The notes under the pieces are model-generated. The model was not told the DNA's origin and made no database searches. It saw only the letters and a program-made list of their open reading frames with translations. 41,592 nucleotides of DNA from Pseudomonas phage LPPA15. Shown here piece by piece: positions 8,349 through 30,407 of the stretch. Positions within the stretch are counted from its first letter, which is position 1, and each line of letters starts with the position of its first letter. A program made the position numbers and the translations under genes. The stretch lies in sequence record PV112476.1; one strand, given 5' to 3'.

Positions 8349-10768
8349 TTAAGCGTCATCGTAAGCGATTCGGAATAAGTTGAATATTTACTATTCGAAA
8401 TAATTTGCGAATCTACGATAACTTCCAGCGTACCAACAAGGCCGGTAACGTTAAGCGTCGTACTGTTTCCGGTCGTCGTAACTGTCGTATAACCGCCAGC
8501 CCCTACGCGCCAGCGAATCCGGGTTTGCGTTCCGCTTTCCCGGTTGTCTGTTGTGTCGCCATAGACGCGCAAGGCGGTATCCGCGCGGCTGCGGTTGCGC
8601 CATGCTACGGCAATCGACGTTGCGCCCGTCTGCGGGGCTGGCGTGCGGCTTCCTGCAAGGGTTAGATACTGCGGCGGCAATGGCAGGCCCGCCCGGTTCG
8701 TTACGGCGCTGGAAAAGGCCGTAGCCGACCCAATCGGAAGCGTTGCGCTTGTCGTTTGGTCAAGAAGTTTAAGATAACCCGTCGTTCCGACCGAAAGAAG
8801 GTTGGGAACCAAGCCGTCGGCGGAACTAATGAACCAAACGCGGTCGTTTGCCGCATGGTTCGCCGGTATCGTATCCAAAACGCCGCGATACAGTTTCGGG
8901 AACGTAACTTGCCCGTTTCCATTATCGACGAAGCCCACATAAACGAATAGTTCGTTATTGACCATCAAGAAAGCCGACCCGTCGCGCGCTTGGTCAAGGG
9001 TCGTATATTGCATAAGCTTTTCGATAGCTGATTGCGCGACGCCTGTAACAACAAACGTCGAACTTGTGTCGTAACGGTCAGTTGCGGCAACGGTTGAAGC
9101 GTAAGCATTCAACAGCAAGCCGCCGCCGTTATAAGACGCATCGTTTAGCGCCAAGGTCGGGTCGGTTGCGAAGTTGTCAAGGCTAAACATACCGTCGAAC
9201 GAAATAGACGCATTGCCCGGCGCAACGGCTGCGCAATACAACCGCCCGGCATTGTCGAACGTCGCCGTCGTTTCGTTGCTGTCGTTGGAAGACAGGAAGG
9301 CGGGCGGCGTGAAAAGCAACCGGGTAACGACGTTTTGCGCGGCGGTATTTGTGGGCGTCCATCCTGAACCTTCGGGCGGGGCAAACGTAACCGTCGAAGA
9401 CGAAAAGCGGTCTTGAACGCAAGAAATCTTGATTTCGTTAGAAGTCAATTCGCCGAAATCAATTTTCGTAACGCGCATAACCATATTTGAAATATTAAAC
9501 GGCTTCCAGTTTAAAACGAATACGCTTCCGGGGCGCAAATCTTGCGCTTTGCGATTAACGACAATATCGCACTTATAAAGCGGAACGTTAAGCAACGACA
9601 ATTGACGCGACGCCAATACGGAAGCAACCGACGCAACAGCGCAGCCCGGAACGTTAATTTCGGTCGATTTAACGCGGTTTTGAAAATTGATATTCGCGAA
9701 GTCTTGCGTAATGGCTACGCTGTCATCGTAATTATTTGAACGGTCTTTGAACGTAACGCGACATTGGTTAAAGGTATTTTCCCAAGTCGTTTTTTGAAAG
9801 TTCTTCAAAGTCGAAATGCTGGATTCATCAAAGACGGGCAGGGCTGAAACCGTGTAATCTTGTCGAATCAATTTCGCAACAATTTTCGACGTTGCCGGGT
9901 CTTGATACAATACGCCGTCGGCAACGCGCATAACTTCTTCTAAAACGTCTTTGCCGGTAATCGCGGATTGAACAATAAGCGACATTCCCAAACCTTCGTT
10001 ATAAAGAGTTTGGGCACAAGCAACGAACGAAGTTAAATCAAGTTCCGACGGAAGATTTCCAAAACGGCCCCATTTTTGCGTAAAGGCGTCGTAAATAATT
10101 TCCATCGGATTAACGTCGTAACCGTTCGGCATAAGCGAATAAGTCGCATGAAGGCCAGACGTAAGACGCGACAGTTCAAAGCTAAATGCCTTCGGCGTCG
10201 TACTGGTTCCAATATAAAACGCTTTGAAAACCGCACGCGCGAAGCCGTTATAAGCCGGAACGTTTGCGCCGATTTTTGAAACCAAATAAGAATCTTGCGG
10301 CGGGTCAAAACGGCCATCGTAAAACGTCATTGTTCCTTGAAGCCCGCCGCCTTCTTTTTCGCCGCCAAACAAATTCGGAAGGTTAATCGAAACGTCGCCG
10401 GAAGAAATATTGCCCGACCAAATTTCGTAAGTATCCGCCCAAATCTTACGAAGTTTAACGCCGGGGCCAAGGCACAAAATGCAATCAATGCCCATATAAT
10501 TTTTATATCCGACCGTAACGCGCTTCGAACTGAACAGGCCGGTTTTCACCTTTTCGGTAATCGCGACCGGGCGAAAGTCGCCGTACCAAGCCGTTATCGG
10601 CGATTTCTGGCGCACGGTTCCCCACACTAGGGGCATGGGGTCGCCATGCTTAGACCGTGGAAATTGGAAGTCGCCAAGCTTCGCCGCGCGGGCGTTTTCA
10701 ATGTTCGGCTTTGGGGTAAGCGCCGCAACCAAAAGAAGGGCGACGATAAAAACGACTAAGTACCACAT
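8345..10768 (-). CDS. Large distal tail / central fibre protein (lambda J / GTA host-specificity-like)
   Basis: 807 aa, last gene of the tail operon. Region ...NGFARAVFKAFYIGTSTTPKAFSFELSRL resembles the N-terminal Phage-tail_3 motif as recalled. Hydrophobic N-terminus. Confidence 0.45.
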   Translation of the reverse strand: MWYLVVFIVALLLVAALTPKPNIENARAAKLGDFQFPRSKHGDPMPLVWGTVRQKSPITAWYGDFRPVAITEKVKTGLFSSKRVTVGYKNYMGIDCILCLGPGVKLRKIWADTYEIWSGNISSGDVSINLPNLFGGEKEGGGLQGTMTFYDGRFDPPQDSYLVSKIGANVPAYNGFARAVFKAFYIGTSTTPKAFSFELSRLTSGLHATYSLMPNGYDVNPMEIIYDAFTQKWGRFGNLPSELDLTSFVACAQTLYNEGLGMSLIVQSAITGKDVLEEVMRVADGVLYQDPATSKIVAKLIRQDYTVSALPVFDESSISTLKNFQKTTWENTFNQCRVTFKDRSNNYDDSVAITQDFANINFQNRVKSTEINVPGCAVASVASVLASRQLSLLNVPLYKCDIVVNRKAQDLRPGSVFVLNWKPFNISNMVMRVTKIDFGELTSNEIKISCVQDRFSSSTVTFAPPEGSGWTPTNTAAQNVVTRLLFTPPAFLSSNDSNETTATFDNAGRLYCAAVAPGNASISFDGMFSLDNFATDPTLALNDASYNGGGLLLNAYASTVAATDRYDTSSTFVVTGVAQSAIEKLMQYTTLDQARDGSAFLMVNNELFVYVGFVDNGNGQVTFPKLYRGVLDTIPANHAANDRVWFISSADGLVPNLLSVGTTGYLKLLDQTTSATLPIGSATAFSSAVTNRAGLPLPPQYLTLAGSRTPAPQTGATSIAVAWRNRSRADTALRVYGDTTDNRESGTQTRIRWRVGAGGYTTVTTTGNSTTLNVTGLVGTLEVIVDSQIISNSKYSTYSESLTMTLN

Positions 10769-11593
10769 TTATTTAACCCCTGTAACGAATACGTTATTCG
10801 ATTCGCCCGGAACAAACGGGCAACCGCCGAAATTGCGTTGATTTGCGAATTTAGGGCAACCGTTCGCGCCTGAATAAGAATGGTCGCAACCTGCCGTAAC
10901 TTGAATCGAAGTACCAACAGCAATTCGGCTAAATTCATAATTGACGGTTAGAACTGTTCCCGATTGATTTACAATCATTCGACGTTCATTGCGCGCCGGA
11001 ATGGCGATTTCGCCACCGATAAACCAACCGTTCGGAAAAGCCCCAAGCGAAGGAATCGAAATATTCCGACCTTCGATTGCCGTAACTTGTGTATCTAACG
11101 AATTAGCAACGCGCGAAACCTTGCAAAGTTCGTCGAACAAAACGTTATTGCAAGGCGGTTGAACATACACGTTCGGGATATTGCCTTGCAGAATCGAACC
11201 GAACTTAGAAGGAATGCGGAAAGTCGCGAATTCGTCATTTACAGTAATTGACGCAATCGGCCCTTTCCAGTAAGGAACAAACGAAGTTGCGTCGCGCTGC
11301 AAACGGTAAATTGTCAAAGCAAGCGAAGGCGGCGTAGTTTGAAACGCATAATCTTTAACGATTTGTTCCGTAATTGGAACTTCTATCGTAATATCTACGC
11401 TGTCATCTTCGTGCGTTCCTACTTTCAACCCGCCGCGTTTAAGGCCCGGAACCGGGTTATAAACCGAACCGTTAAACGTATGCGCCAAATTGTCGGAAGT
11501 CATAAAATAATTACGATATGTTCCGACGAATTCGAACAGTTCAAAGGGCGCGCTATCGCTTAAACTTTTTTCTTTGTCGTCGTAATCAGACAT
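10769..11593 (-). CDS. Tail tip / baseplate-hub-like protein with a Cys-rich C-terminus
   Basis: Position in the tail tip module; C-terminal GCDHSYSGANGCPKF...GGCPF. Confidence 0.35.
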   Translation of the reverse strand: MSDYDDKEKSLSDSAPFELFEFVGTYRNYFMTSDNLAHTFNGSVYNPVPGLKRGGLKVGTHEDDSVDITIEVPITEQIVKDYAFQTTPPSLALTIYRLQRDATSFVPYWKGPIASITVNDEFATFRIPSKFGSILQGNIPNVYVQPPCNNVLFDELCKVSRVANSLDTQVTAIEGRNISIPSLGAFPNGWFIGGEIAIPARNERRMIVNQSGTVLTVNYEFSRIAVGTSIQVTAGCDHSYSGANGCPKFANQRNFGGCPFVPGESNNVFVTGVK

Positions 11594-11594
11594 A

Positions 11595-13307
11595 TTAAGG
11601 TTCCGCCGTTCTAATGGAAAGATTCAACAGGCTTTCAAGCCCGTAATGCTTCCATTCTATCTTATCATCGTTCAAACGAACAGGTAACAAATACGAAATG
11701 CGCGAAACGTTGCGCCAGCCTGCGCCAGTTGGAAGCGGCGTCGTTAAAAGAATAATCGTATTCGAACCCGTTACGCTTGCGCCTGTTATTTGCGTTCGAT
11801 GAATGCCCGAAGCTGTTTCAATTTCGATATAGCGATGCGTGATAATCGGCCAAATCTTTTCGGCGTATTGCGTGCCTTCGATTGTGTATGTCGTCGTTGC
11901 ATCCGAAGGCGCGACGGCCAATTTCATATCGTCGCGATATGTGGGCATCCAGAATTTGCGCGCTTGACCCCGGCAGTATGCAAAGACTGTTTTCCAATAG
12001 TCCATTTCGTCGGGCGCTTTGATACGATTTACTTTAAAAGTTCGCGGCCCGCCAATGCGGCTATAATCCCAACGCGAAATAATATCCGGCAATCCGGTTT
12101 GATTGTCGATTGAAACTTGGCCGGTCGAAACTTCGTCTTTAACCAATTCGTCGGCAAGCGGGCGTTTATCTACGACAGGCGAACCAAGGAAAGTCGGAAG
12201 CGTTACGGCGGAACCTGTACGGGTAAGCGCCGAACGTTGCCGAATCATCTTGCAAATAAGCGTCGTTTCTGCGGCCTGATTTACGGCGTAACGGTCGATT
12301 GAAGTTTGGTTGTCAATAAGTGCGGGCGAACCCGGCATGATTAAAGAATTCGCCGGAATATCCGCAGTAAGCGGCGAAGTTACAGTTCCGCCGCTTGCGT
12401 TAAGTGCGTTGATTTCAACAAGCATTGCGGTAACTGGCGTTTGAATTAAAACATAATCGCCCGCGCGAATGTCTGTTTGCGTGTTATCGTAATAAACTTG
12501 AAGACTTCCGCTTGCACTTGCTGCGGTTGTTCGCGTTGCGTATTGATATTCGGGAATCCAAAGCCGCCCAATAGACGAAGCCAAATCCGAATAAAAGCGA
12601 CGGATTGATTCGCTAGAATCAAACTTTACTTTCAAATTCAATTCAACGCGCGGCATTTCGCCGCGAAGTGCTATACGCTGTTCGGTTCCATCGGTCGCAA
12701 TCATCAAATCCGACAACCATTCCCAAGTTTCATTAACCGGAACTTCGGGCACAATGTCGAATTTAACGGCGCGCGTTCCTGTAATCAGAATCGGCAATGG
12801 GTCGGCGACGTTGGAAAAATCAAATTGAACTTCGACGCTGATATTAGGCGGGCCGCTTGTTCCTACGGTAATATCGTAAGTCAATTCTTGAAGCGGCGGC
12901 ATTGAATACGGCACGGCTTGGCCTGAAATTTCAATGCCAACAGGGTTCGAAACCAATACGTCGGAAAGTTGCGCAGCCGTAAAAGGCCAAGCGTTCCAAA
13001 CTTTAAATTGGCGTGTTTGCGACGACGCTACGGTTTGCAAATCCAGTTTAAGCGGCGAAACATGAACGCGAAAATAATAGTCTTGAAAAAACGATTGTTG
13101 AACGTTGCCCACAATACCAAGATTGTTTCCGGGCGCGATTCGAAACGGGTTGCGCGGCCCGTAAATTGCGAAGCCGCTTACCAATGTTTTGTAATTAAGC
13201 GGGGCAAAGGCGGCGGGCGTATTTTCGTTCAAATCCGAAGAAATGTACGGGTTAATTTCGCCGCCTTTAAAACCAGCTTCTAAAATTCCTGCAAGTCTTC
13301 CGGCCAT
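11595..13307 (-). CDS. Tail protein (distal tail / baseplate candidate)
   Basis: 570 aa in the structural operon between the paralog pair and the tip proteins. Confidence 0.35.
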   Translation of the reverse strand: MAGRLAGILEAGFKGGEINPYISSDLNENTPAAFAPLNYKTLVSGFAIYGPRNPFRIAPGNNLGIVGNVQQSFFQDYYFRVHVSPLKLDLQTVASSQTRQFKVWNAWPFTAAQLSDVLVSNPVGIEISGQAVPYSMPPLQELTYDITVGTSGPPNISVEVQFDFSNVADPLPILITGTRAVKFDIVPEVPVNETWEWLSDLMIATDGTEQRIALRGEMPRVELNLKVKFDSSESIRRFYSDLASSIGRLWIPEYQYATRTTAASASGSLQVYYDNTQTDIRAGDYVLIQTPVTAMLVEINALNASGGTVTSPLTADIPANSLIMPGSPALIDNQTSIDRYAVNQAAETTLICKMIRQRSALTRTGSAVTLPTFLGSPVVDKRPLADELVKDEVSTGQVSIDNQTGLPDIISRWDYSRIGGPRTFKVNRIKAPDEMDYWKTVFAYCRGQARKFWMPTYRDDMKLAVAPSDATTTYTIEGTQYAEKIWPIITHRYIEIETASGIHRTQITGASVTGSNTIILLTTPLPTGAGWRNVSRISYLLPVRLNDDKIEWKHYGLESLLNLSIRTAEP

Positions 13308-13310
13308 GTT

Positions 13311-14237
13311 TTAGCTTCCGGTGTATTTGATTGCGTAACCCCAAGTTCCCGAATGTTGCGCGCCTGTTGAATAATTTACGCCGTCGCGAACTGTTGCGTT
13401 TTTTCTATGGAACGGGTAGCATTTCCATTGTTCGGAACCGAACGTAATAATTTCGCCCGGAACAACGTTGTCGATTCGCATATAGCGAACGTTTCGCGGA
13501 TTTGCGACGATTGTTCTTCCGTTGTCGAATCGGAATTGAATTGCTTTTACCGGAACTAATACGTTAGCGTTATTGCCAAGGTTCGGCATTGCAGTAAGAA
13601 GGCCCGCAGCATACGACATACCTTGCAAGCCGGTTCCAATTGTGCCGTTTTCTGCGGTCTTCCAGCCTACCGAATCAAGCCCGGCATGTACGAAGCTTGC
13701 TTGCTGCGAACCTGAATTGTTGGCATGGGCGAATAGTCCGACAGTTTGCCCGGCTTGATAACCTATACCCGCCGAACTTGCGCTGGCAGTCCAATAAACC
13801 ATGCGGTTACCAGCCGACGTTAGGCTAATTGTTGAATGATAAGCGCCTGTAAACCATGCGCCAGTACCGCCGATGCCCGGAACGTCGGATTTTCCGAATG
13901 AAATTTGTTGGTAAAAATCCGAATTGTAATTGATTACGCAATAAACTTCGTCGGGGTTCGTGAAAACGTGAATTTCGTAGTTAATCGGGAACGTTATTGC
14001 ATAGCCGGTAATGCTTCCAAGCCTAGCCCCGGCAGTATGCGCCCCGGTAAGCGTCGAACCGCTTTGGCCCGTTCCGCCGTCAATTTGAAGATAATTCGAA
14101 GCGTTGGAAAGTTTGAAGAAACAACCGTTCTTCGACAAAATGCCGCTTGAAAGCGTCCAACCGTTCGCCGTGCAAGCATTTTGCAAAGCGGTTTGAAGGT
14201 CGGCGAAAGTTGCGGCGGTTCCGGTAATGTATGCCAT
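13311..14237 (-). CDS. Tail protein, paralog B (fibre/receptor-binding candidate)
   Basis: 308 aa; shares the N-terminal M-x-Y-x-x-G-T...ANGWT signature with the adjacent gene. Confidence 0.35.
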   Translation of the reverse strand: MAYITGTAATFADLQTALQNACTANGWTLSSGILSKNGCFFKLSNASNYLQIDGGTGQSGSTLTGAHTAGARLGSITGYAITFPINYEIHVFTNPDEVYCVINYNSDFYQQISFGKSDVPGIGGTGAWFTGAYHSTISLTSAGNRMVYWTASASSAGIGYQAGQTVGLFAHANNSGSQQASFVHAGLDSVGWKTAENGTIGTGLQGMSYAAGLLTAMPNLGNNANVLVPVKAIQFRFDNGRTIVANPRNVRYMRIDNVVPGEIITFGSEQWKCYPFHRKNATVRDGVNYSTGAQHSGTWGYAIKYTGS

Positions 14238-14241
14238 GTTA

Positions 14242-15204
14242 TTAACTCATTTCAATAGCGACGAAATCGCGCCAAGTTGTACGATTGACGTTTTGCGCCA
14301 TTACGAAGGCGCGACCGCTAACCGCCCGGATTGCATCAACGGCTTGTTTTACCGTCATGCCTGTTTGGTCAATTGTGGAACTTCCGCCCATTTGAACAAC
14401 GTTTTCGACGGCATTATTAAAACCCGAACAGTAATAAACGCCGTCAAGTTCGCCCCAAATATTCGAAGGGTTCGAAGTTGAATCCTGTTGGCCTAGAATA
14501 ATCGGTTCAAGCTGATAATAAACATCGGCGGGAACCATACAATTTGACGTTTGCGGCCCGGCAAGTGCGTTAGAACTTGAATTTCGATTTGTGAAAGGAT
14601 GCGACCAAACTTTGTTCCAGTTTCCCGACAAATCGCGAAGCCAAAGATAACAGTTCGTCGAATCGTAATAAACGCCCGGATATGGGAATTGTTGCGTCGT
14701 ATCGCTAAAACGCTTCAATTCCGCACCGTTGAACATTCCGGCATTAACAAGCGGCGAAGGATATTCGCCCGGTCTTGCATACGGAAACATTTTGCCGACA
14801 TAGAAATGTTCATAAACCGGCGTTCCTACTTTAAGACAAGCGACGATGCGTTGCGCGTTTGCTGTCATAAAATAAGTAATCGCGTTATTGTGGGCAGGAA
14901 CGCCGGAAGCTTTGAAACCCGGTTGCGCCGCAAACGCATTTCCGCTAACGTATCCGGTGAAAGTTGCGGCCAAAATGTTGTAATAATCGCCGGTTGTACT
15001 TTGGTACGTTTGAAAGCCTATGTAAATTTCTTCGGCCCCGGACAAACCAAGCGATTTCAAAATAAGTTCGCGGTTTGCCGAAGCGGTATCGTAACGAAGC
15101 GTTGTCCATCCGTTAGCTTCGGCAAGCGTCTTAATTACGCCCAATAATTGATAATGGCAATCATCGCCGCCGCCCTTCGTTACTGTTCCGATTGCGTAAC
15201 CCAT
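14242..15204 (-). CDS. Tail protein, paralog A (fibre/receptor-binding candidate)
   Basis: 320 aa immediately downstream of the tape measure (ATGA-type junction at 15204). N-terminus MGYAIGT...ANGWTT. Confidence 0.35.
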   Translation of the reverse strand: MGYAIGTVTKGGGDDCHYQLLGVIKTLAEANGWTTLRYDTASANRELILKSLGLSGAEEIYIGFQTYQSTTGDYYNILAATFTGYVSGNAFAAQPGFKASGVPAHNNAITYFMTANAQRIVACLKVGTPVYEHFYVGKMFPYARPGEYPSPLVNAGMFNGAELKRFSDTTQQFPYPGVYYDSTNCYLWLRDLSGNWNKVWSHPFTNRNSSSNALAGPQTSNCMVPADVYYQLEPIILGQQDSTSNPSNIWGELDGVYYCSGFNNAVENVVQMGGSSTIDQTGMTVKQAVDAIRAVSGRAFVMAQNVNRTTWRDFVAIEMS

Positions 15205-18200
15205 TATTTAACCCCTACAATTTTCGCAACCGTCGAACCGTTTTGTTCGATGGTTTCAATAATAAATGCTTGACCTTCGGAAGACTTCAAACCGGCCAAG
15301 GCGGCTTCTTTCGATTGTACCACTACGGCATTAAAAGGAACATTGACAATCGGCGCGGGCGCTGCGGCGGGCGCATTGCCCACACTAGCCGCCCCGGCCT
15401 GTTCGCCGTTCCGTTGCACGTTCGCCGCGCCAGCCTGCAAGGCTTGCAGATTCGCGACGCCAATTCGTGCCGTTGCGTTTGCGTCCATAACGTATTCGCG
15501 ACCATGCACAACGCCAGCAACTTCATTAACGCCAATCGACCCGGTATAACCGCCGTCTTTAAATCCGGCGTTTTGGCTGCGGATTTGTTGAACGTTCGCC
15601 AAGCCTGCGGCAATAGCTGCGGCGGCTGCGGCTGCGCCCAACGCCGGGCCGACGTAAGGAATCGAAGCCATCGCAGCGTATGCGCTTGTTGCGCTTTGGT
15701 AAGTCGAAATCATGGCTTGCGCAATTGCGGCGGCTTTGCCAACTGCGGCCATTTTCTTGTTACCGGACTTTTGCAACGCGGCCAAGTTTCCGAAAAAGCT
15801 ATTTGCCGCGTTCAAATGCACGTTTTGGCGCTGCAATTCAATTTGCATTGAAGCCGAAGCGTATTCCTGTTCGGTAATTAAGCGTTCGTCATACATGCGC
15901 TTAATTTGGTCGTTATACGTTTGATACATTGCCAATTGTGCGTCAATATTGCTTTGGAAGTTCGTTGTATCGACGCCCATTCCTTGCAGCATGGAATTAG
16001 TCGCGTTCGCTTGGTCGCCTGCGGTAAAACCCGACGATTGATTAGCGCGAAGATTTTTAATCGCGGTCAATTGGTCGATAAAGGCTTGGCGCTTGGTTAC
16101 GCTGGCATCCATTAACGCGGCTTCCTGTTGGGAAACGGCGTTTAGTTGCTGAATAACCGTAAGCTTTTCGCGAAGTGCGGCGGTTTCCGCTTGTGTCAGT
16201 ACGACGCCCTTTTGCAAAAGGTCGTTACTGATTTGCATAATTTGCTGTTCGACTTCGCGTTGTTTCGGCAACATTTGCAACAACGTTTGTTGCTGTTCTA
16301 GTTCCTTGTTGTACTGATAAAGCGGGTCGGTCGCTTGCTTATAAGCTTCGCCCGCTTTGGTAATTTGTTGGTTATATTGCTGTTGCGTAATAACGCCTTG
16401 CGACAACAGCTTTTGCGCTGCGGTAATATTGGCGTTATAGTCGCGTTGCGGCCCTACGGCTTCTTCGTAAATTCTATCGTAAGCTTGTTGAATATCCTTC
16501 GCTTCCTGAATCGCTTTAATCTTTTCTTTGATTGCGGCGGCTTCGTCTTGCGAAAGCTTAATTTTCTTACCCAACAACTGTTCTTCGATTTGGTCGAACC
16601 GGGCTTGCGCTTCGCGTTCCGGCTTCAACATATACATACGCGACAATTCGTTATCAAGTTCGGCGTTAATTTTGGCAAGCGCAGTTGCGCGCTTTTCCGC
16701 AGCCTTGGCGGCTTTTTCGTCGATAGCGTTAGGCGTCAAGTTCGGGCCAGTACCGCGCAAGGCCGAACCTTGACCTTCGGCGGCTTTACGCTTCGCCGCA
16801 ATATCGCGGGCGCGGGCCATGAATGCGTTTGCAGCGTCGCCGACGTAATCTTTATTAAATGCGTCGGTAAATGCCTTGCCAACTTCGGCGGCTGCGCCCT
16901 TAGCGGCATCGCCGACTTGCATACGCGGAAGCTTAATCGTCGCAGCATCAAGCGCAGCATTAAGACGCCCGGCCATATCCGGCGCAACTTCGGCCCCAAG
17001 TTCGGCAATTTTGCGCAAGCCAACTTGCCAAGCATTAACGACAGTTTCGACCGCGCTTGCGCCGAAATTGACGACGGAAGCGAAGACGTATTGCATAACG
17101 TCGGGGAATTTGTCCCAAATAACCTTAATCGCGTTGAATGCGCCGACCCAACTTGCAATTACGAAATTAACGTAGCCTTTTACGGCTTTTACGATAAAGT
17201 TTCCGACGTTTCGGAACTGTTCGCCCCAACCTTCCGTTTTGCTATTTACCCAATCAATCGCCGTATTCCAAACGCTTTTAATCCATTCAGCGGCAACGCC
17301 CGCAGCATCGCTAATATAAGCGAAGGCGGTTCGGAACATATCTTTAAGCGTTACGGATTTATCGGCGGTTACTGCGATTTCGTCGCCGAATACGGTAATC
17401 GCGGCAATTGCTGCGGTAATGCCCACAACAAGCAAGCCGATAGGGTTTGCGGCAAGCGCGGCGGTAAAGGCCCAAACAGCGGAAGCCGCCGAACTGATAG
17501 CCGCAACCAACGTCGGGCCGAACGCGACCAACAGCGCAGCCCCGGCAATCGCAGCCGCTACGGCAAGCGCCTTCATATTTTCGGCAAGGAAGATAATTAC
17601 TTTCGAAATGCCGGAAGTAATGCCCAATTGTTTGTTAATTTCGCCGAACGTTTGCGTCGCATTGTTTTTAAGAACGGTCATCGCCTGCGACAATGTGGGC
17701 ACCGTCTTTCCAAATTTTTCATCAATGCCCTTTGCGGCATCGTTGAAAGCATCGACCATAACTTGCGCCGTAATCTTGCCTTGCGGGGCAAGCTTCAACA
17801 GTTCGCCGCGCGTAACGCCCAAGCGTTTAGCGATTGCGTCGGCGGCATTCGGCATAAGTTCCATAACCGAACGGAATTCGTCGCCGTCTAGTTTGCCTTT
17901 GTTGAATGCCTGCGAAAGTTGCAGCAACGCGGAACCGGCTTCGGTAGAAGTTGCGCCAGAAACGACAAGCATTTTATTAACTGTTTCAGTAAGCCGCAAC
18001 GAATCTTGTTGCGATTTGCCAAGGTTTTTCAACGCCATATCGAAGCGCGTAAAAGCTTGCGCCGTTTCCTGTACCGGCGTTCGCGTCTTGTTGGCTACGT
18101 TAAACAGTTCGTTGGTAAGTTCCGTAACCTGTCGTTCGGAATCCGAAACGTTTTGCAACTTGTTTTGAAGTACCGTATAAGCGTCGGCACTTTGCAAAAT

Positions 18201-20058: not shown

Positions 20059-21588
20059 TTACTTAGGCATTGCCACATTCGGCAGATACGAAAACGCTTC
20101 GTAAAGCATCGTATAGCCGTTCGGGTTTTCCGCGCCTGCCGGTTCCAGCGGAACAGTAATCGGCGCGTCTTTTTCAACGGCCAGACGACCGCCGCCAAGA
20201 CCAAGCAACGGAATATCGAAGACAAAACCGGCATTCTTCGAAGCGCCGATAACAGACAAGCCAACGTCGGCATTTTGGCGAACCGCGCGAACAGCCGAAA
20301 CCGTCGTAAAGTAAGCCGTAATGGAACCGCCGACTTCGAAGTTACCCGCCGTCGTATCGAATGCGCCAAGAATACCGACGGCCTTGTTCGGTGAAACGTT
20401 GTTGTTAATCGAAACGTTCGCTTCGGAAACGTAGCCAAACAGCGCGGCGGGGTTCGAAGCGGTCGGGTCGATTACCGCCATTTTGATTCGGTAAATGTCC
20501 GAAGACGTGTTAAACGCATCTTCGCCAGCCGCCGAAACGCGCGTTCCCGACTTGATTTCGTCGCCAGCTTCGCCCGATTTGTGGGTATTGTCGCAAGCGA
20601 TAAACGTAAGGTCGGCGTTCAACTTGTCGGCCTGCGGAATGTTCAACGTAAATTCGTTGGCTACCGCACCTTCCAAGTATTCGGCTTGGGTCGAAGTTGG
20701 GCCGCTTCCCAACTGGCGTTCGATGTTGTACGAACGACGCTTGATAAGCGACGGCGTTTTTTCGTTCTTAATGACAGTACCGACGAAAAGACGAATCGTT
20801 TTGCCCGTACCGGCTTCGGTCGCCGGGGTAAAGGTCGTATCGTCGAAAACGATAGCCTTTGCAGCAATCGACTTAATGCGCGCGTAGCCCACATTATTAG
20901 CGAAGGCCGTTCCCGCAGCATCGCCGCCAATGAAGACCCAAAGCCCCGGAATCAGGCCCGGCAGGGTCGTAAAGTCGGCGGCGGTAGCGACAAGCGACGG
21001 AACGCCAGACGTAACAGCCATCGAAATATCGCCGCTTGCGAACTGGAAGCCGACGGTTTGAAGCTTTGCAGCGGCGGGCGGGGCGGCTTCGTCAATAAGC
21101 GTTTCATTAACGACAACCGTTCCAGCGGTCGAAGAAGCGACGGTTTTAAGGCCGTTGTTCGTCGCATTGCTGAAACCGCTTGCGTAAATCAATTGAAGCG
21201 CAGCGAAGGAACCAAGGCCGGAAGCGGCGGCGTAGGTCTTCGAAGAAGCGGTAACGCCGGTAAGCGCGACCGCCGCAGCGTTAAGCGCCTTCGTGTTCGG
21301 CAGTTCGCGCGCATCGGCGAAGAAGAAGCCTTGAAGCAAGCGCGTAAGATTCGACTTCGTAAAGTCGATATTGAAACCGCCCGAAGCGTCAAGGTCGGTA
21401 ATCGTACCTTTCTTGTTTTGCCGCGAAGGGTCGATAGGCGCACGCGCAACGGTCGAAAGTTCGCCGCCGAAATCCGAATAGCTGTTGGGTTCCAGCCCGT
21501 ACCAAACGGGCGTACCCGGAAGCGTTTTCAGCGTCGTTTCTTCCGCGAATGCAAGGCCGGTAATGTTCGAATCAATTTTGTTAGCCAT
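20059..21588 (-). CDS. Major tail protein
   Basis: 509 aa immediately upstream of the G/GT chaperones. No tube/sheath pair is present, so the tail is siphovirus-type. Confidence 0.5.
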   Translation of the reverse strand: MANKIDSNITGLAFAEETTLKTLPGTPVWYGLEPNSYSDFGGELSTVARAPIDPSRQNKKGTITDLDASGGFNIDFTKSNLTRLLQGFFFADARELPNTKALNAAAVALTGVTASSKTYAAASGLGSFAALQLIYASGFSNATNNGLKTVASSTAGTVVVNETLIDEAAPPAAAKLQTVGFQFASGDISMAVTSGVPSLVATAADFTTLPGLIPGLWVFIGGDAAGTAFANNVGYARIKSIAAKAIVFDDTTFTPATEAGTGKTIRLFVGTVIKNEKTPSLIKRRSYNIERQLGSGPTSTQAEYLEGAVANEFTLNIPQADKLNADLTFIACDNTHKSGEAGDEIKSGTRVSAAGEDAFNTSSDIYRIKMAVIDPTASNPAALFGYVSEANVSINNNVSPNKAVGILGAFDTTAGNFEVGGSITAYFTTVSAVRAVRQNADVGLSVIGASKNAGFVFDIPLLGLGGGRLAVEKDAPITVPLEPAGAENPNGYTMLYEAFSYLPNVAMPK

Positions 21589-22445: not shown

Positions 22446-22967
22446 TCAAACCCGCAAAGTACGAAGCGCAAAGCCGGTTGCAGTTGAACCAAACAGCGGG
22501 GCCAACAGCGAATCGACGGCGGTTAATGTGGGCACGATACCAACTTTCGTCGGGTCGGCGTATTTGGTCGTAATTGGCCCTACGGTTTCTTCGGTTACGA
22601 AGTTCGAAGCCGAATAATTCGGCATAATATCGACGCCTTCGGCAATTGCCAGAATTGCGGCGCATTGTGCCGATTTAAGTTCTTTTGGAATTGCGTTCGA
22701 CGGAAAAGCGACTTCGCTTCCGTACAAATAAACGTCGATTCGCGGCCATTGCAAAGCTTGGTCGGCATTCGTCATTTCGCCTTGATAGCGATTCGCGAAC
22801 GATTCCAAATAATCTTTTGCTTTGATAATTTGAACGGCTACGTCGTCATCGGTAGCCGACAGGGTTACGCCGCGTTGCACGGCATACGCCCGCGCTTCGG
22901 CAATCGTAACGAACGAATTTGCGTTGGCTACGTTAGAACCGTCTTCAACTGTAATTGTTATCGCCAT
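22446..22967 (-). CDS. Head-tail connector / adaptor protein
   Basis: 173 aa, first gene after the capsid block, as expected in an SPP1-like order. Confidence 0.4.
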   Translation of the reverse strand: MAITITVEDGSNVANANSFVTIAEARAYAVQRGVTLSATDDDVAVQIIKAKDYLESFANRYQGEMTNADQALQWPRIDVYLYGSEVAFPSNAIPKELKSAQCAAILAIAEGVDIMPNYSASNFVTEETVGPITTKYADPTKVGIVPTLTAVDSLLAPLFGSTATGFALRTLRV

Positions 22968-23026
22968 TTTTAAACCTTCGTTCGTTACGGTTGCCGCCTG
23001 CCCACACTAGGCGGGCAGGCTGCGAC

Positions 23027-23407
23027 TTATTGCGGCGCGTTGGGCGTCCATGCCGGGGCGCTGGCGGGCTTTGCAGGCTGCGCCGGGGCTTGGGCCTTGG
23101 CTGCGGTTGCGGGCGCGTTGGCGGGCTTGGCCGGGGCTTTCGGGGCCGGGCTGTCGCCTACCTTCTTCGCCAGCTTCGCCAGCTTGGCGGCGTGCGCCTT
23201 AATCGCTTCGTCGGCTTCCGGGTAGGCTTCCGCGTAGGTCGGCGGAACCTTGCCCGTTACGCCGTCGCATTCTTCCAACGCACCTTCGGGCGGAACAGCG
23301 CGGGCATTGCGGAACACGACTTGCGCTTGCATCTTCGAAGCGGCTTCGAAGTCTTCCGGGGTCGGCGAAACGCCATCCACGAAATAAAGAATCTTTGCGG
23401 GTTTCAT
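23027..23407 (-). CDS. Hypothetical head-associated protein with a Pro/Ala/Lys-rich C-terminus
   Basis: Lies between the major capsid and connector genes; low-complexity PAKPA tail. Confidence 0.3.
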   Translation of the reverse strand: MKPAKILYFVDGVSPTPEDFEAASKMQAQVVFRNARAVPPEGALEECDGVTGKVPPTYAEAYPEADEAIKAHAAKLAKLAKKVGDSPAPKAPAKPANAPATAAKAQAPAQPAKPASAPAWTPNAPQ

Positions 23408-23473
23408 AGTTGAAATTCCTTCGAATTAAGTTTGCATGGAAGAAAGGGGCCGAAGCCCCTTCCGTCGTTCGCC

Positions 23474-24457: not shown

Positions 24458-24469
24458 GATAAAGCTTCC

Positions 24470-25171: not shown

Positions 25172-25190
25172 TGCTAGGACTCCTTAGCGG

Positions 25191-26309
25191 TTATGCCGAT
25201 TCACCGAATCGGCGGGAAAGAACTTCGTTAATCTTACGGCGGAATTCGTCAAGCGTTAAAGCTTGGCGGCTTTCAAACTTCGGCAAATCGCTTTGCTTCA
25301 AGTTTCCGTTTCTCAATTCGTCGGCTACGTCTTCGCCCAAAATGTCGTTTTGAACGTCTGCGGGCTGGCGAATGGCCCAAGTATAAAACGATTCGGCGGC
25401 TATGTCATCCGTGCCCACAATAGGCGCGATATGCGACCTGCACCGAATATGCGCGGGCGGGATTGGGCCTTGTCCGAAACGATAGCGTTTGCGATTTCGG
25501 CTTATGCAAATTTCGGTCGTCTTTCCGTCCATTACGGAATACCAACCATACCAACCGAAAAGCGCCGACATTACCGCCGCGCCTGTAATTGCTGCGACGT
25601 GCTGAACTGCGGTTGCAACAACGGCGCTTGCTTGAACGCCGACGCGCTGCAACTGCGACGAAGTACCTTGCTTATTATCTTCGCCGGTTATTTCTTGCAA
25701 AGTTTCTTCAATAGTCCAACCGTTCGCCCATGCTTTGCGAATGGTATTTTCGACGCTTGCTTGTGCCGAAACTGCGAAGGTTTTTACGAACGGCACTAGA
25801 TAAAGCCCGTTTGCAGGAATCGGCGCATTCGTAACAGCCGACCAAAGCCGGTCGTTATTGCCAGTAATTGCGGCCAATCCGAACAGCGGAATAAAGTTCG
25901 CTTGGTTGTTTTCTTCTTTAAGGAACTTGATTGCCCGCGCATCCGAAGGAATTTGCGGCTTTCCGTAACGTTCTTCGTCGAATTCGAATTTCGCATAGAC
26001 ATAAGCGCGGCGGTTCATTTCCAAATCGGCGCGCATGAAGTCTTTTAGCTGTTTCAAAATCTGTTGCGTGTATGCGCTATATATCCTAGATTGTGATTCG
26101 CGCAACGTAACGACAAGCTTATTCAATTCGGCTTTTGTCAAACCGTCAAGCGTTTTATATTTTACACGCGCAAGAATGCGGCTTATTTCTAAGCGAAGTT
26201 CGGCCAAGACAAAGTTAAATTCGCGGGCGTATTGAACCTTAACGCCTTCGATATAAACTTGGCCCCGCGTCGCTATGTCGTAAAGCCGCATATTGTCCGA
26301 AAGTGCCAT
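25191..26309 (-). CDS. Minor head / morphogenesis protein (Mu F / SPP1 gp7-like)
   Basis: 372 aa immediately after the portal gene. Confidence 0.5.
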   Translation of the reverse strand: MALSDNMRLYDIATRGQVYIEGVKVQYAREFNFVLAELRLEISRILARVKYKTLDGLTKAELNKLVVTLRESQSRIYSAYTQQILKQLKDFMRADLEMNRRAYVYAKFEFDEERYGKPQIPSDARAIKFLKEENNQANFIPLFGLAAITGNNDRLWSAVTNAPIPANGLYLVPFVKTFAVSAQASVENTIRKAWANGWTIEETLQEITGEDNKQGTSSQLQRVGVQASAVVATAVQHVAAITGAAVMSALFGWYGWYSVMDGKTTEICISRNRKRYRFGQGPIPPAHIRCRSHIAPIVGTDDIAAESFYTWAIRQPADVQNDILGEDVADELRNGNLKQSDLPKFESRQALTLDEFRRKINEVLSRRFGESA

Positions 26310-26311
26310 GA

Positions 26312-27814
26312 TTACGCCCCTTGGTTGTTATCGGGCGGCGTATTGCCGTCGCCCGGAACGTTGGCAGGGGTCGCAAGCGCCATTGCTGCGGCGGTTTCTG
26401 CGGCAATCTTCGTTTTGGCCTGTTCGTCTTCTTCGGTAGCCGTGCCCGACTTGCGAAGAACCGCGCGCATTTCTTCGAAAGTAATTGCGCCGCCTTGCCA
26501 TTCTTTAATCGCTTGGGCGCGTTCTTCCGGCGTCATGCGGGCAATGTCGAAATCCGTATTCAGTTCGAACGTAATTGCGGTATCTGGAACGCCGACAAAC
26601 TTTGCGCACCATTTCAACGCCCAAACGTAAGCGGCTTGAACGTTCTTTGCGGTACTGGAAAGCGTCGAACCTTCCGACGTTGCTTCTACCTTTGCTTCGA
26701 ATGCGGTTCGTTGAACTTGCTTTTGTTCGACAAGCTTTGCGCCAAGTGCGACCATTTGGCGTTCTTTGGCTTCCATCGCTTCTTTAATCATCGTGTTTTC
26801 GGTCGCTTGCAACAACTTAGCGTCGCCGCCGACCGGAAGCGGAATGCCGCCGCGCGAACCAAACGCGACGGTTCCTTTCAATACGTCTTTTACCCATTCT
26901 TCCGTAAGCCCGGTAAGAACTGGCGTCGGTTGTCCGACAATAAAACAAGATTCTTCGTAATCCGCCGAATTGCGATAATGCGCGACGTTGATACTTGCCA
27001 AGTCGTAAAGGTTAGGGTTATCCGGCTGCGGGTCGTTGTTTTCCGAACCTACGAACGAAAACGGAATTTCGCGCAACGGCAGGCCGTCGGCACCGCGCGG
27101 GCGAAGAACCTTCGAAAGCTGGAAATTGCCTTTCGGCGTCTTGCTTCCATCCCATGCCGACGGCTGCGGTTCCGACCAAACTTCCATTACATATTCGCCG
27201 TTTTCGTCAAGCTTCAAAACGCGGAATTGGGCCGCGTTCTTCATTTCAAAACCATCATCGGCGAACGTATAAGATTCGGCCAATACGACAAGCGACAAGA
27301 TTTCTTCGGCCCCGCGTTCGGTTAAACGCCAATTGATAATTTCTTGCGGCGAATACGTCGTAATCGTCGGGCGAACGCGGCCCGCTTCAAGGTCGGCGAT
27401 AGTTGCGCCGCCTTCGGGAACTTCGGGATAATCGACCAACAGCCCGGCGCGCGAATACGCCAGCGTTAGCGAAAGCGTCTTTTTCGATTGTTGCGTAAGA
27501 CTTACGCCGGTTCCGCTTGCGTTTTCGATAACCGGATTCAACAACGAAGGAACTTTAACAACCGGGTCGCGCATAAATACTTGACCGACAAGGCCGTTCA
27601 AAGTGCGACGGGTTACGTTATAGAAAACGGCGCGTTTCAAATAAGAATCGTAACGCGCTTTATTTTCCTTCGATTGGTCTTCGGCGTTCGGCATCGGCAA
27701 ATAAACCGTTCGCGCGCCTTTAATCGTCGGTTCGCCGGAAAGGCAATCGCGAATAAGGTAATATTGCGGAAGAAGCTTCGACAATTCGGGGCGAATAAAC
27801 GCAACGTTCGGCAT
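26312..27814 (-). CDS. Portal protein
   Basis: 500 aa directly downstream of the large terminase. Confidence 0.65.
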   Translation of the reverse strand: MPNVAFIRPELSKLLPQYYLIRDCLSGEPTIKGARTVYLPMPNAEDQSKENKARYDSYLKRAVFYNVTRRTLNGLVGQVFMRDPVVKVPSLLNPVIENASGTGVSLTQQSKKTLSLTLAYSRAGLLVDYPEVPEGGATIADLEAGRVRPTITTYSPQEIINWRLTERGAEEILSLVVLAESYTFADDGFEMKNAAQFRVLKLDENGEYVMEVWSEPQPSAWDGSKTPKGNFQLSKVLRPRGADGLPLREIPFSFVGSENNDPQPDNPNLYDLASINVAHYRNSADYEESCFIVGQPTPVLTGLTEEWVKDVLKGTVAFGSRGGIPLPVGGDAKLLQATENTMIKEAMEAKERQMVALGAKLVEQKQVQRTAFEAKVEATSEGSTLSSTAKNVQAAYVWALKWCAKFVGVPDTAITFELNTDFDIARMTPEERAQAIKEWQGGAITFEEMRAVLRKSGTATEEDEQAKTKIAAETAAAMALATPANVPGDGNTPPDNNQGA

Positions 27815-27826
27815 TTTGATTTTCCT

Positions 27827-29443
27827 TTAACTTGGCATGATTACTTTAAACTTCGACGCGCTGCGCTTCGAACCCTTCAAGACGCGATAACGAACCATAT
27901 CATAACAATGGTCTTCCGCCGTCGTATCAACATCGTCGATTTTTTCTTTGTCGCGCGGTAATGTGGGCAAAAGTTCTATCGAAGCAACGCAATTTGCCAT
28001 AAAGTATATACCCGGCCCTTCGTTTTTAACAGCGGCTTCTAACCTATCGCGCAACAACTGCAAACCGTTTCGCCGCGAACCGGGCGATTTATCGGATTCA
28101 ATCCAGCGAATGCCCTTCTTCGACATTTTAAGTTCGATTGTTTCAACGTCGGATTCCCGAACGTCGCGAATTTGATTATCTGCCGGGCCGGGCCAAGGTT
28201 GCGTCGAAATCCAGCCGTTCGCCATCATCGAAACTTCGCGGTCGATAATGCCTTGCGCTACGTCTGGCGCTGAAAGCTTCAAACCTTTATTCGTACCGAT
28301 TTCGGTTGCGCCGTACCATTCGAAAATTTGAATAAGCGAACCGGCAGGCGGGCAAAACGAATAAACTTCGTCGCCGATTACTATTTGCGCTTCTTCGCCG
28401 TTGGCTTCGGCAAACCAGCCCACACTAAACGGATGCGACGAACCCCAATCCAACGCCCTATCAATGCGCCAGCTTGCAGGCACAACGAAGCGCGGTACGA
28501 CGTGAATATGCGATTGCCAAAGGTCGTCAAGCGCGCCGCCTGCGGTAACATCCCAATCGCCATAAAGCCAAGCCTTACGCAAGTTCGGGTCTTTGATACT
28601 TTCCAGTTCGGCGACGTATCCGGGCGGAAGATACTTGTTTTCGCGATACGAACCGAATATAGCGACTTGGGTTCGAACGACGGTTTCGTTTTGTTCCGTT
28701 TGCGGGTTATAGATTTCGACGGAAGTACGAACAACAGTACCGCGCGGGGCAACGTTGATAAAACGACGTTTAACCCAATTATGGCCGGGGCCGTTCGGGT
28801 TCGTCGTACTGAATACTTCTAGCGGAATCGGCGGTAACGGAAGACCGTTCGGCGTCAAATATTCGCCTTTGTCGTTCTTCGGCGTATTTAAAATCGGGTC
28901 AAATGACGAACGATTAACCGACATAAACTTGTCGTAAAGTTCCGACGAAGCATGTTTGGTTAATTCGTTCCAACCTAAAAACGGGTATTCGTGGCCGTGG
29001 AACCCTTCGTAGTCCGAAACCTTTTTGACGTGGCGAAACAACAGTTCTTCGCCAGTAGGCCAAACCCATTTATAAGCCGAAGTCGATTCGTAGAACTTCG
29101 CACCGTCGCCGAACTTGCCAAACCATTTTTTCGATTCGGCAACAAGCCCGCCCAAATGGTCAAATTCCAAATCGAAAATAACGCCGCGCCAGAATTGGCC
29201 GTAGCCTTTCCCGACGTGGCGAAGAAAGCGCATAAGTTGGGTAACAGTCTTGCCGGGGCCGCGTGCGCCTTCGTATAACGTATGGTCGCAACGCGAATCA
29301 ATGGCGATTGATTGCGAACCCGGCAAGGGTCGCCAAACGATTTCGGGTTTCGGGGCGTTCGCCAATGCCGCCGACATTCGCGCCGACTTAATGGCGCTTT
29401 CGGCGATTTCGCCCGCGCTTTTAATGTCGGCTTCGGCTAACAT
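27827..29443 (-). CDS. terL: Terminase large subunit
   Basis: 538 aa with Walker A YEGARGPGKT in the N-terminal ATPase and a nuclease-sized C-terminal half. Confidence 0.75.
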   Translation of the reverse strand: MLAEADIKSAGEIAESAIKSARMSAALANAPKPEIVWRPLPGSQSIAIDSRCDHTLYEGARGPGKTVTQLMRFLRHVGKGYGQFWRGVIFDLEFDHLGGLVAESKKWFGKFGDGAKFYESTSAYKWVWPTGEELLFRHVKKVSDYEGFHGHEYPFLGWNELTKHASSELYDKFMSVNRSSFDPILNTPKNDKGEYLTPNGLPLPPIPLEVFSTTNPNGPGHNWVKRRFINVAPRGTVVRTSVEIYNPQTEQNETVVRTQVAIFGSYRENKYLPPGYVAELESIKDPNLRKAWLYGDWDVTAGGALDDLWQSHIHVVPRFVVPASWRIDRALDWGSSHPFSVGWFAEANGEEAQIVIGDEVYSFCPPAGSLIQIFEWYGATEIGTNKGLKLSAPDVAQGIIDREVSMMANGWISTQPWPGPADNQIRDVRESDVETIELKMSKKGIRWIESDKSPGSRRNGLQLLRDRLEAAVKNEGPGIYFMANCVASIELLPTLPRDKEKIDDVDTTAEDHCYDMVRYRVLKGSKRSASKFKVIMPS

Positions 29444-29876
29444 TCAGCAATTCCCGTTGTTGTGCGGCGGCTGCGGCTTCCCATTCTTCGTTCGTTCCAT
29501 GCGTCGGAACTTCGATTGCGCGCGGGATTACGACTTGCACGGCGGGGCCGGTTTGCGGTTTCTTCGCAAGCCCCTTCAATTCCATTAGCTTATCAAGCGC
29601 CTTAATTCTGTCGTCGGGAAAGCGCGCGTTTTCGATGATTTCTTTTAGTTTTTCTTCTACATAACGTTCATCTTCCGAAACGCCAGATTCGGCAATTTCG
29701 GCTTTCTTCAATTCGGCAATCATCGCCTTAACTTCGGCGTCGTTGTGCCACATTGAAGCGATTTGCGCGGCCCGGTTAAAGTTGGCAGGATGCACCAATT
29801 GCCCGGCTTCTAGCGGGTTCATATTCGCCGAAATCATCGCTTGCGCGAATGCGGCTTTTTCTTCGGATTCGGTCAT
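29421..29876 (-). CDS. terS: Terminase small subunit (putative)
   Basis: 151 aa immediately upstream of terL, overlapping it by 23 nt. Confidence 0.45.
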   Translation of the reverse strand: MTESEEKAAFAQAMISANMNPLEAGQLVHPANFNRAAQIASMWHNDAEVKAMIAELKKAEIAESGVSEDERYVEEKLKEIIENARFPDDRIKALDKLMELKGLAKKPQTGPAVQVVIPRAIEVPTHGTNEEWEAAAAAQQRELLNVSRSRH

Positions 29877-29938
29877 AGCGGGAAGCCTTCAAATGTCTTT
29901 GCCCAACTATACCGCAAACGGCGCAAGCTGTCAGCCGC

Positions 29939-30169
29939 TTATTGCTTTTCGCAATTCTTCGACCATGTTTCGTTATGTGCCAAAATTTGCCGCGCGGTTC
30001 CGTCGGTCAATACGTCTTTCTTCGAAATCAAAATGGGTTGAACCCATTTGCAAGCGGTATCAATTACGACCGTTTTTGTTTCGGTCGCTTCTTTAATCCC
30101 GCGCCCATTTGTCGCGCAACTTGTTAGCAGCGTCGCCAGCGTCAAGCCGATTAACATTCGTTTGAACAT
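29939..30169 (-). CDS. o-spanin (outer-membrane lipoprotein, Rz1-like)
   Basis: Signal peptide with lipobox LLTSC. Starts inside the i-spanin gene in another frame and extends past it. Confidence 0.6.
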   Translation of the reverse strand: MFKRMLIGLTLATLLTSCATNGRGIKEATETKTVVIDTACKWVQPILISKKDVLTDGTARQILAHNETWSKNCEKQ

Positions 30170-30407
30170 CGTTTGCCCCTTTAACTGTTTCAACTTCGGT
30201 TTTTGCGGCATCGCGTGCGGCGTCGATTTCGCGAACTGCGATTTCTTCGTTACGTTTCGTTTCCGCTTGTGCGGCTTCTACCTTTGCTTCGGCCTTGCCC
30301 ACACTACGCGAAGACCGAAGGGCGACGAACAGCGCCCCGGCGATAGACAAAGCGGCCAGAATCCAGCCGCCAAAGCGTTTCAGCATTGCAAGAATGATTG
30401 CGGTCAT
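30093..30407 (-). CDS. i-spanin (Rz-like)
   Basis: N-terminal TM helix followed by a charged coiled coil; follows the endolysin gene. Confidence 0.6.
   Translation of the reverse strand: MTAIILAMLKRFGGWILAALSIAGALFVALRSSRSVGKAEAKVEAAQAETKRNEEIAVREIDAARDAAKTEVETVKGANDVQTNVNRLDAGDAANKLRDKWARD

Follow-up and report, generated by a model that had tools for sequence, protein, structure and literature searches.

Evenly spaced GCCCACA sites in Pseudomonas phage LPPA15 and its relatives: putative designated template sites for the phage primase-helicase

What use does a phage have for a short DNA word that recurs throughout its genome, mostly inside unrelated genes? The question is raised by Pseudomonas phage LPPA15 (sequence record PV112476.1), whose 41,592 nucleotides, here called the window, contain GCCCACA (TGTGGGC on the other strand) far more often than expected by chance. 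A preliminary description of the window had noticed five copies of a longer form, had taken them to be strand-biased, and had offered a host Chi-like recombination hotspot, a packaging- or replication-related site, or the target of a DNA-binding or modification system as possible roles. The enrichment of GCCCACA is real and independent of coding. By analogy with characterised relatives of the enzyme, the word probably designates the template sites used by a putative primase-helicase that the phage itself encodes.

A dispersed word under selection at the DNA level

The ends of the window are an exact 127-bp duplicate (bases 1-127 equal bases 41466-41592), so that the contig represents a circularly assembled genome of 41,465 unique bp, and the copies at 18 and 41483 are one site. 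Three backgrounds were used for word counts: dinucleotide-preserving shuffles, synonymous-codon shuffles within genes, and an order-3 Markov ranking of k-mers. Against dinucleotide shuffles, GCCCACA is present in 28 copies in the window (17 on the plus and 11 on the minus strand) where 2.9 are expected, an over-representation stronger than had been claimed. The unique genome holds 27 sites (16 plus, 11 minus), about ten-fold over chance, and under the Markov model no other 7-mer comes near GCCCACA/TGTGGGC in over-representation.

The 9-mer of the preliminary description, CCCACACTA, is indeed found five times and always on the plus strand (at 10621, 15379, 23001, 28419 and 30298, within one or two nucleotides of where it had been placed), with 0.05 copies expected from dinucleotide shuffles. 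Four of the five are GCCCACA sites followed by CTA, whilst the copy at 10621 reads CCCCACACTA, without the G. The strand bias does not hold for the motif as a whole, being confined to the subset with C at +1.

Several observations show that selection is on the DNA and not on the protein, as the preliminary description had argued from the identical Ser-Val-Gly codons (AGT GTG GGC) in three late genes; these codons do stand on the coding strand at three CCCACACTA copies, in the genes for the tape-measure protein, the large terminase and an Rz-like protein. Codon-preserving shuffling, a control proposed at that time, yields 7.3 copies of GCCCACA on average and at most 13, including the five intergenic copies that were left unshuffled, against the 27 real sites. 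GTG is a rare Val codon in the genome (8%, with GTT at 51%), a codon use very unlike that preferred by Pseudomonas and other high-GC hosts. Each of the 11 GTG-GGC dipeptides is preceded by T, so that the motif is complete. By homology-guided gene coordinates, which also served for the codon shuffles, 22 of the 27 sites are intragenic, in line with the earlier view that the word is mostly intragenic, with 10 in sense and 12 in antisense orientation to the gene and the other five outside genes. The intragenic sites occupy the cheapest frames, xxT-GTG-GGC or xxG-CCC-ACA.

The sites are also evenly spaced. Gaps average 2,591 bp on the plus strand (coefficient of variation, CV, 0.24) and 3,769 bp on the minus strand (CV 0.28); sites placed at random would have a CV of about 0.9 (p<1e-4). 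Orientation alternates beyond chance (20 runs against 14 expected, p=0.013), and there is no polarity switch. The gap on the major strand is 2.3-2.6 kb across six distant genomes (the window, Kakheti25, RcTitan, Suba, Kimi and phiAxp-1).

The full signal is longer than the word first described. Some 150 non-homologous sites pooled from ten genomes define a signal of about 16 nt, T-GCCCACA-H-T-A-N followed by about six T-poor bases. The -1 position is T in 72% of sites and never G, the H position after GCCCACA is never G, and the approximately six positions after T-A-N contain only 3-9% T. This constrained flank is one-sided, with nothing comparable on the opposite side of GCCCACA, and it is not a codon effect, since both strand classes of site carry it.

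The individual sites are listed below with the strand of GCCCACA. Sense and antisense refer to GCCCACA relative to the gene, with the codon reading in brackets; conservation was judged in the alignable relatives, four or five per site.

18-24, plus strand, intergenic, 33 nt upstream of the Sak4 gene; duplicate copy at 41483-41489
2553-2559, plus, Cas4-type exonuclease gene, sense (A-H-I); word shifted by 2 nt in relatives
4110-4116, minus (TGTGGGC on the plus strand), SF2 helicase gene, antisense (L-V-G)
5410-5416, plus, clamp gene, sense; GCCCGCA in relatives
6563-6569, minus, DNA polymerase gene, antisense (L-V-G); kept in 2/5
7091-7097, plus, DNA polymerase gene, sense (K-P-T); kept in 5/5
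8933-8939, plus, tail J-like gene, antisense (Y-V-G); kept in 3/4
9350-9356, minus, tail J-like gene, sense (T-P-T); not kept in relatives (turnover)
10620-10629, plus, near-miss CCCCACACTA with no G at position 1, one of the five 9-mers first described
11940-11946, minus, gp24-like tail gene, sense (M-P-T); kept in 4/4
13107-13113, plus, gp24-like tail gene, antisense (I-V-G); kept in 3/4
14889-14895, minus, gp22-like gene, sense (A-H-N); kept in 4/4
15378-15384, plus, GCCCACA(CTA), tape-measure gene, antisense (S-V-G); kept in 3/4
17421-17427, plus, tape-measure gene, antisense (V-V-G)
17694-17700, minus, tape-measure gene, sense (V-P-T)
20887-20893, plus, tail-tube gene, antisense (N-V-G); kept in 5/5
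22527-22533, minus, head-tail adaptor gene, sense (V-P-T); kept in 4/5
23000-23006, plus, GCCCACA(CTA), intergenic, in the loop and 3' arm of a hairpin with a 10-bp stem downstream of the gp12-like gene
25413-25419, plus, head-morphogenesis gene, antisense (I-V-G); not kept
27962-27968, minus, large terminase gene, sense (L-P-T); kept in 4/4
28418-28424, plus, GCCCACA(CTA), large terminase gene, antisense (S-V-G); kept in 2/4
30297-30303, plus, GCCCACA(CTA), Rz-like gene, antisense (S-V-G)
32526-32532, minus, GCCCACATG, abuts the start codon of the gp57-like gene
33012-33018, plus, dCMP deaminase gene, antisense (C-G-H); kept in 4/4
35763-35769, plus, intergenic
36843-36849, minus, intergenic
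38644-38650, plus, within the primase gene, antisense (I-V-G); kept in 4/5
40545-40551, minus, MazG-like gene, antisense (C-G-L); not kept

The copy at 23000 does belong to a hairpin, as had been noticed, but only part of it is in the loop and the rest is in the 3' arm. The arrangement at 32526, with the word at a start codon, is the same as that printed for gp54 of phage KL1 (PMC3483164). Five divergent pairs 456-528 bp apart occur in the window (6563-/7091+, 14889-/15378+, 22527-/23000+, 27962-/28418+ and 32526-/33012+); Kakheti25, Samson and phiAxp-1 have similar pairs (432, 470 and 497 bp), and Halfdan and KP1 have none.

The word covaries with the primase lineage

LPPA15 is a siphovirus with about 76% nucleotide identity to Pseudomonas phage 73, Kakheti25 and Stenotrophomonas phage DLP1 (Septimatrevirus); the window is inverted relative to Kakheti25. 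Besides the primase-helicase gene, described below, its genes include two blocks:

57-8348, plus strand, genes for Sak4, SSB, a DUF3268 protein, a Cas4-type exonuclease, an SF2 helicase, a clamp and a DNA polymerase
8345 to about 31465, minus strand, tail, head, terminase and lysis genes

Twelve named relatives also have this word as their highest-ranking 7-mer, at 21-30 copies where about 1-4 would be expected: Kakheti25, DLP1, Xanthomonas phage Samson, PSV3, Variovorax phage BAPIC_0004, the E. coli phages Halfdan (Lokivirus) and FtMidnight, Rhodobacter phage RcTitan, Pseudomonas phage KP1, Xanthomonas phage Suba, Sphingomonas phage Kimi and Achromobacter phage phiAxp-1. The comparison with related phages that the preliminary description had proposed thus finds the word top-ranked, and on both strands in every genome examined. 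The hosts of these phages span the alpha-, beta- and gamma-proteobacteria. Among 65 IMG/VR loci with primases at least 53% identical to that of the window (GC 35-58%), the word ranks first of all 8-mers in 42 and third or better in 53, at a median density of 0.53/kb against 0.12/kb by chance; in the sparse loci CCCACA is still enriched three- to four-fold. Four IMG/VR contigs (L020-L023) have primases 92-99% identical to that of the window, far closer than any isolated phage, which points to a Septimatrevirus-like species otherwise known from uncultured viruses. Of the window sites that can be aligned, about 60% are found at the same place in relatives, against a background 7-mer identity of about 23%, and the remainder are gained and lost across the relatives while the total stays constant at 21-30.

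In 50 kb of E. coli K-12 DNA, GCCCACA occurs at 0.08/kb, at or below chance, and TGCCCACA not at all, while Chi (GCTGGTGG) occurs at 0.28/kb. The E. coli phages Halfdan and FtMidnight have 22-26 copies of the word (0.5-0.6/kb) and only 2-3 Chi sites. In T1, T7 and E. coli DNA no CCACA/TGTGG word ranks better than 77; the top enriched words of T7 are its promoters, not its primase sites.

More distant primase lineages carry enriched words of their own, built on TGTGG:

Window group (primase at least 53% identical): TGTGGGCA, 13-21 copies against 0.2-1.0 expected (8-mer, in the relatives)
phiAxp-1: (C)TGTGGGC, 17 against 0.7, with G where the window group never has G
BL5: TGTGGTCA, 29 against 1.6
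Seuratvirus VogelGryff: TGTGGTTA, 40 against 2.3
NrS-1: GTGGTT, 31 against 11, and TGTGGTT, 13 against 3.5
Salmonella phage Solent: CCCGTGG, 28 against 5.4
phi105-type prophages: TGTGGA, 2.2-fold when pooled

Of the 41 phi105-type loci, 9 have TGTGGA as their leading 6-mer and 26 have it among the top ten, with three sister words at about 1.0. The annotation of phi105 lists no polymerase, clamp, helicase or Cas4-type exonuclease. Across these groups the word covaries with the lineage of the primase.

Some of the genomes surveyed have further repeated words. NrS-1 has a second enriched word, AAGTGTAAC(C), in 11 copies, and phage T1 has 8-mers of its own, ACCAGTCA(G) (17 against 2.0 expected) and AATAGCAC (16 against 1.7). 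The top pooled 7-mers of the phi105-type prophages are GGGTTAC (171 against 21 expected) and AGTAACC (201 against 38). Solent repeats ATTCTTGAC 11 times, with a promoter-like look, and Edwardsiella phage MSW-3 has 15-17 copies of a longer repeat containing CCGGAGCAGCC.

A primase-helicase as the putative reader

The proposed reader of the word is encoded on the minus strand:

37414-39732, minus strand, AEP prim-pol with a helix-bundle domain (HBD) and a DUF3987 helicase, 772 aa (PF22763, PF13148; phrog_3022, DNA primase)
39253-39723, minus, AEP catalytic domain, aa 4-160, with D82, D84 and S110-x-S-G-x-G-x-H117
38953-39078, minus, helix-bundle domain region, aa 219-260, including Y260 (Y261 of NrS-1), the proposed sequence-reading module

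In the PDB, the N-terminus of the primase matches the NrS-1 prim-pol (N300, E ~1e-29) and the staphylococcal primase-helicase 7OLA (3e-36), and in Pfam the protein matches the NrS-1-type HBD (PF22763) and the DUF3987 helicase-type domain (PF13148). Alignment shows that it keeps D82/D84, H117 within SxSGxGxH, and Y260, equivalent to NrS-1 Y261, mutation of which impairs priming (PMC8718748). After A-F-Y-T the window's enzyme has Q-N-R, where other lineages have S-N and K-D, candidate positions for the lineage-specific bases of the word.

Enzymes of this type prime at specific sequences. The pRN1 protein ORF904 depends on 5'-GTG-3' in the template and on the base that follows on the 3' side; its primer, 8 nt long, begins directly 5' of GTG (PMC2034472). 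The NrS-1 prim-pol uses 5'-GTGG/GTGA-3' and 5'-TTTGGTTA-3', starting at the first base upstream, and its HBD binds the recognition site (PMC8718748). The reverse complement of the window's word, 5'-...T-A-D-T-GTGG-GCA-3', contains this GTG/GTGG core. On the template strand the constrained flank, about 10 nt long, is found only 5' of GTGG, the predicted primer side, and T precedes GTGG.

The evidence thus favours the replication-related role among those first offered, with the word as a predicted primase template site. The template strand at each site would read 5'-[~10 nt, A-poor]-T-GTGG-GCA-3'. If it works like its counterparts in pRN1 ORF904 and NrS-1, the HBD would bind the GTGG core together with the lineage-specific 3' extension GCA, and synthesis would begin opposite the T directly 5' of the core. 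Since T always precedes GTGG, the primer would begin with A, and it would read 5'-A-H-T-A-N-VVVVV, from the last A of GCCCACA on. With sites about 2.6 and 3.8 kb apart on the two strands, a fork would always be near a good priming site, at intervals of Okazaki-fragment length. In the commoner of the two orientations, TGTGGGC falls on the sense strand of the late genes, which would serve as lagging-strand template when forks travel in the direction of late transcription. We infer a preference of this primase for the full 8-mer, in-vivo primer starts at these sites, and a role in lagging-strand synthesis.

The closest parallel is the NrS-1 site: the enzymes are homologous, T-GTGG is shared, the flank of the window's word falls where the NrS-1 primer starts, and the Seuratvirus word TGTGGTTA is one base from TTTGGTTA. 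The NrS-1 site differs in being minimal (3-4 nt), with full sites beside the primase gene and only GTGGTT mildly enriched genome-wide, whereas the window has an 8-mer with a flank, enriched about ten-fold and evenly spaced on both strands. The window phage also has a separate family-B-like polymerase and a clamp, so its prim-pol is probably a primase only. The pRN1 ORF904 site is similar in its GTG core, in the start directly 5' of it, in the importance of the 3' base and in its primer of about 8 nt, comparable with the constrained zone of about 10 nt in the window; in contrast, ORF904 is the replicase of an archaeal plasmid, and no extended site, enriched or regularly spaced across a genome, has been described for it. 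The T7 gp4 primase, of the DnaG/zinc-finger type, reads 3-5 nt at 5'-GTC-3' sites (GGGTC, TGGTC, GTGTC) and initiates inside the site. It too is a phage-encoded primase-helicase with short sequence-specific lagging-strand priming, but it differs in enzyme type and in its start within the site, and the top words of T7 are promoters.

Two other possible readers were considered and rejected. A helix-turn-helix (HTH)-like gene of 74 aa (39732-39956, minus strand) abuts the primase start. It shows no detectable similarity to Kakheti25 gp37, which occupies the same position, and shares 57% identity with Halfdan gp45; non-homologous genes have thus replaced one another in a conserved slot upstream of the primase. 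As a reader of the word it is excluded by the identity of the motif in the window and in Kakheti25. The VRR-NUC protein (34389-34817, minus strand) is excluded by the lack of a detectable homologue in BL5 and VogelGryff.

Several points weigh against assigning the word to the primase. Characterised HBD homologues read only 3-4 nt, and no genome-wide preferred 8-mer for HBD prim-pols was found in the open literature. Phages R18.1 and MSW-3, with primases 29-33% identical, have no such word, and enrichment in the phi105 group is only about 2.2-fold. In NrS-1 the full sites are not dispersed but form an origin-like cluster, with GTGGTTA/TTTGGTTA in both orientations at 17165-17445, directly downstream of the primase gene. 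Where enrichment is strong, the primase is inherited together with the SF2 helicase, exonuclease, polymerase and clamp, so that gene co-occurrence cannot single it out; a comparison of gene distributions aimed at splitting primase from helicase found no discordant genome.

Depletion of the core elsewhere in the genome is not counted as support for priming at these sites. GTGG occurs 50 times, 27 of them inside sites, against 335 expected, and GTG is also depleted. Avoidance of cryptic priming was dropped as an explanation, since this depletion tracks that of GAG/CTC and is absent from BL5 and VogelGryff. The 23 residual GTGG cores are scattered, with no origin-like cluster in the window.

The GAG/CTC depletion is independent of the GCCCACA word. 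The trinucleotide is nearly purged from the window (21 places in 41.5 kb, observed/expected 0.02), surviving mostly in the Shine-Dalgarno form AAGGAGT or in GAGT; residual places include 20001, 21597, 25180, 32227, 33819, 34101 and 35391. Ratios of 0.01-0.05 are found in Kakheti25, DLP1, Samson, RcTitan and Halfdan, but not in Kimi, BL5 and VogelGryff. Across 63 genomes and loci the ratio is associated with the gene for a DUF3268 zinc-finger protein, with medians of about 0.03 for the 36 that have a homologue and about 0.6 for the 27 that lack one (Mann-Whitney p=3e-9, kinship ignored), L084 and L065 being exceptions. In the window this gene lies at 1643-2170 on the plus strand and encodes 175 aa (phrog_1934, unknown function), with no solved relative. 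GATC is missing altogether from the window, and likewise from Kakheti25, DLP1, PSV3, BAPIC_0004, FtMidnight and Kimi; CTAG and GTG/CAC in the window are at 0.16 and 0.23 of expectation.

Other readings and implications

The alternative that survives best, although an unlikely one, is a phage-encoded Chi-like or 'self' signal, in which TGTGGGCA would be read by the SF2 helicase with the Cas4/RecB-type exonuclease, or would modulate a nuclease, such that phage DNA is spared or recombination stimulated while word-less host DNA goes unprotected. The helicase and exonuclease genes are adjacent and co-inherited with the motif in the main lineages, and the alternation of sites on both strands means that any break meets a correctly oriented site within a few kb. 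The word resembles E. coli Chi in being short, G/T-rich, over-represented and acting at the DNA level, and it is rare in E. coli DNA. Chi, however, is host-specific and strongly co-oriented with replication, whereas the word is host-independent and is found 16 times on one strand and 11 times, in alternation, on the other. We know of no phage-encoded Chi system of this kind. The helicase family (2,348 records) is far wider than the motif, and TGTGGA persists in the phi105-type prophages, although the phi105 annotation has neither the helicase nor the Cas4-type exonuclease. Nor does a Chi-like signal predict a one-sided 10-nt flank beginning at the start point of HBD primases, or a word core that agrees with known primase biochemistry. 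A more specific form, slightly less likely still, makes the word a private Chi analogue that acts, together with the GAG/CTC purge, as a mark of self, so that host DNA is destroyed and the phage's own spared. If so, self and non-self would be distinguished by sequence vocabulary and not by base modification.

Slightly more doubtful than either is that the sites are localized nicks in virion DNA of the T5, phiKMV-like or tf type (TACT/RTGMC in tf), cut by an endonuclease of the phage, for example the VRR-NUC protein. The window does encode this small nuclease, and nick consensuses are phage-specific sequences of 7-19 nt in 4-14 copies per genome (PMC3517423), repeated, like the word, mostly within genes. 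In the three known cases, though, the nicks are confined to one strand and are not evenly spaced (PMC3517423), and it is this confinement that makes nick sites unlikely here, where both strands carry sites, in alternation, in every genome examined. VRR-NUC is moreover undetectable in BL5 and VogelGryff, which carry the strongest words, and no report of nicks was found in the literature on phage-73-like phages, including Kakheti25.

About as improbable as nicking is a set of binding sites for a phage DNA-binding protein other than the primase, be it a transcription factor, a nucleoid-like protein or a modification enzyme. An 8-mer that is conserved and flanked would suit such a protein, as would the copies that are intergenic or at start codons (18, 32526) and the one in a terminator-like hairpin (23000). 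Against this stand the intragenic position of 22 of the 27 sites, with 10 sense and 12 antisense, on which grounds a promoter or operator was rejected, and the even spacing, with no clustering at regulatory regions. The HTH gene upstream of the primase has been swapped for a non-homologous one with the motif unchanged. A modification target, one of the roles first offered, likewise finds no support: annotations of the relatives list no methyltransferase, and analogous words occur both with 7-deazaguanine genes (BL5, VogelGryff) and without them. A packaging site, another early proposal, does not fit 27 evenly spaced sites on both strands. Lastly, a host-derived signal, either Chi for RecBCD/AddAB, as first suggested, or a DNA uptake sequence, would suit a short over-represented word of this length but can be put aside almost entirely, being refuted for E. 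coli, because the identical word is common to phages of three proteobacterial classes whatever the host and is not enriched in E. coli DNA.

Sequence-specific priming by HBD prim-pols is already known; what appears to be new is a version that is genome-wide, evenly spaced, extended and lineage-specific. In the open literature on the words, the genus and primase-site enrichment, the feature is undescribed, and hits to the words are mostly primer sequences and RUNX sites. If the sites are indeed designated priming sites, then a broad group of siphoviruses (Septimatrevirus, Lokivirus, Titanvirus, Queuovirinae and many uncultured relatives) would encode its lagging-strand starts as an evenly spaced, lineage-specific code of 8-16 nt, which would co-evolve with the helix-bundle domain of the primase. 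Primase specificity would be predictable from sequence (TGTGGGCA, TGTGGTCA, TGTGGTTA, TGTGGA), providing natural specificity variants for structure-function work on the HBD, and Okazaki-fragment boundaries would be fixed in a tractable system. The words are practical markers of the replication module in metagenomes. Priming at these sites would also explain a strong constraint on synonymous sites in Pseudomonas and Stenotrophomonas phages that are used therapeutically.

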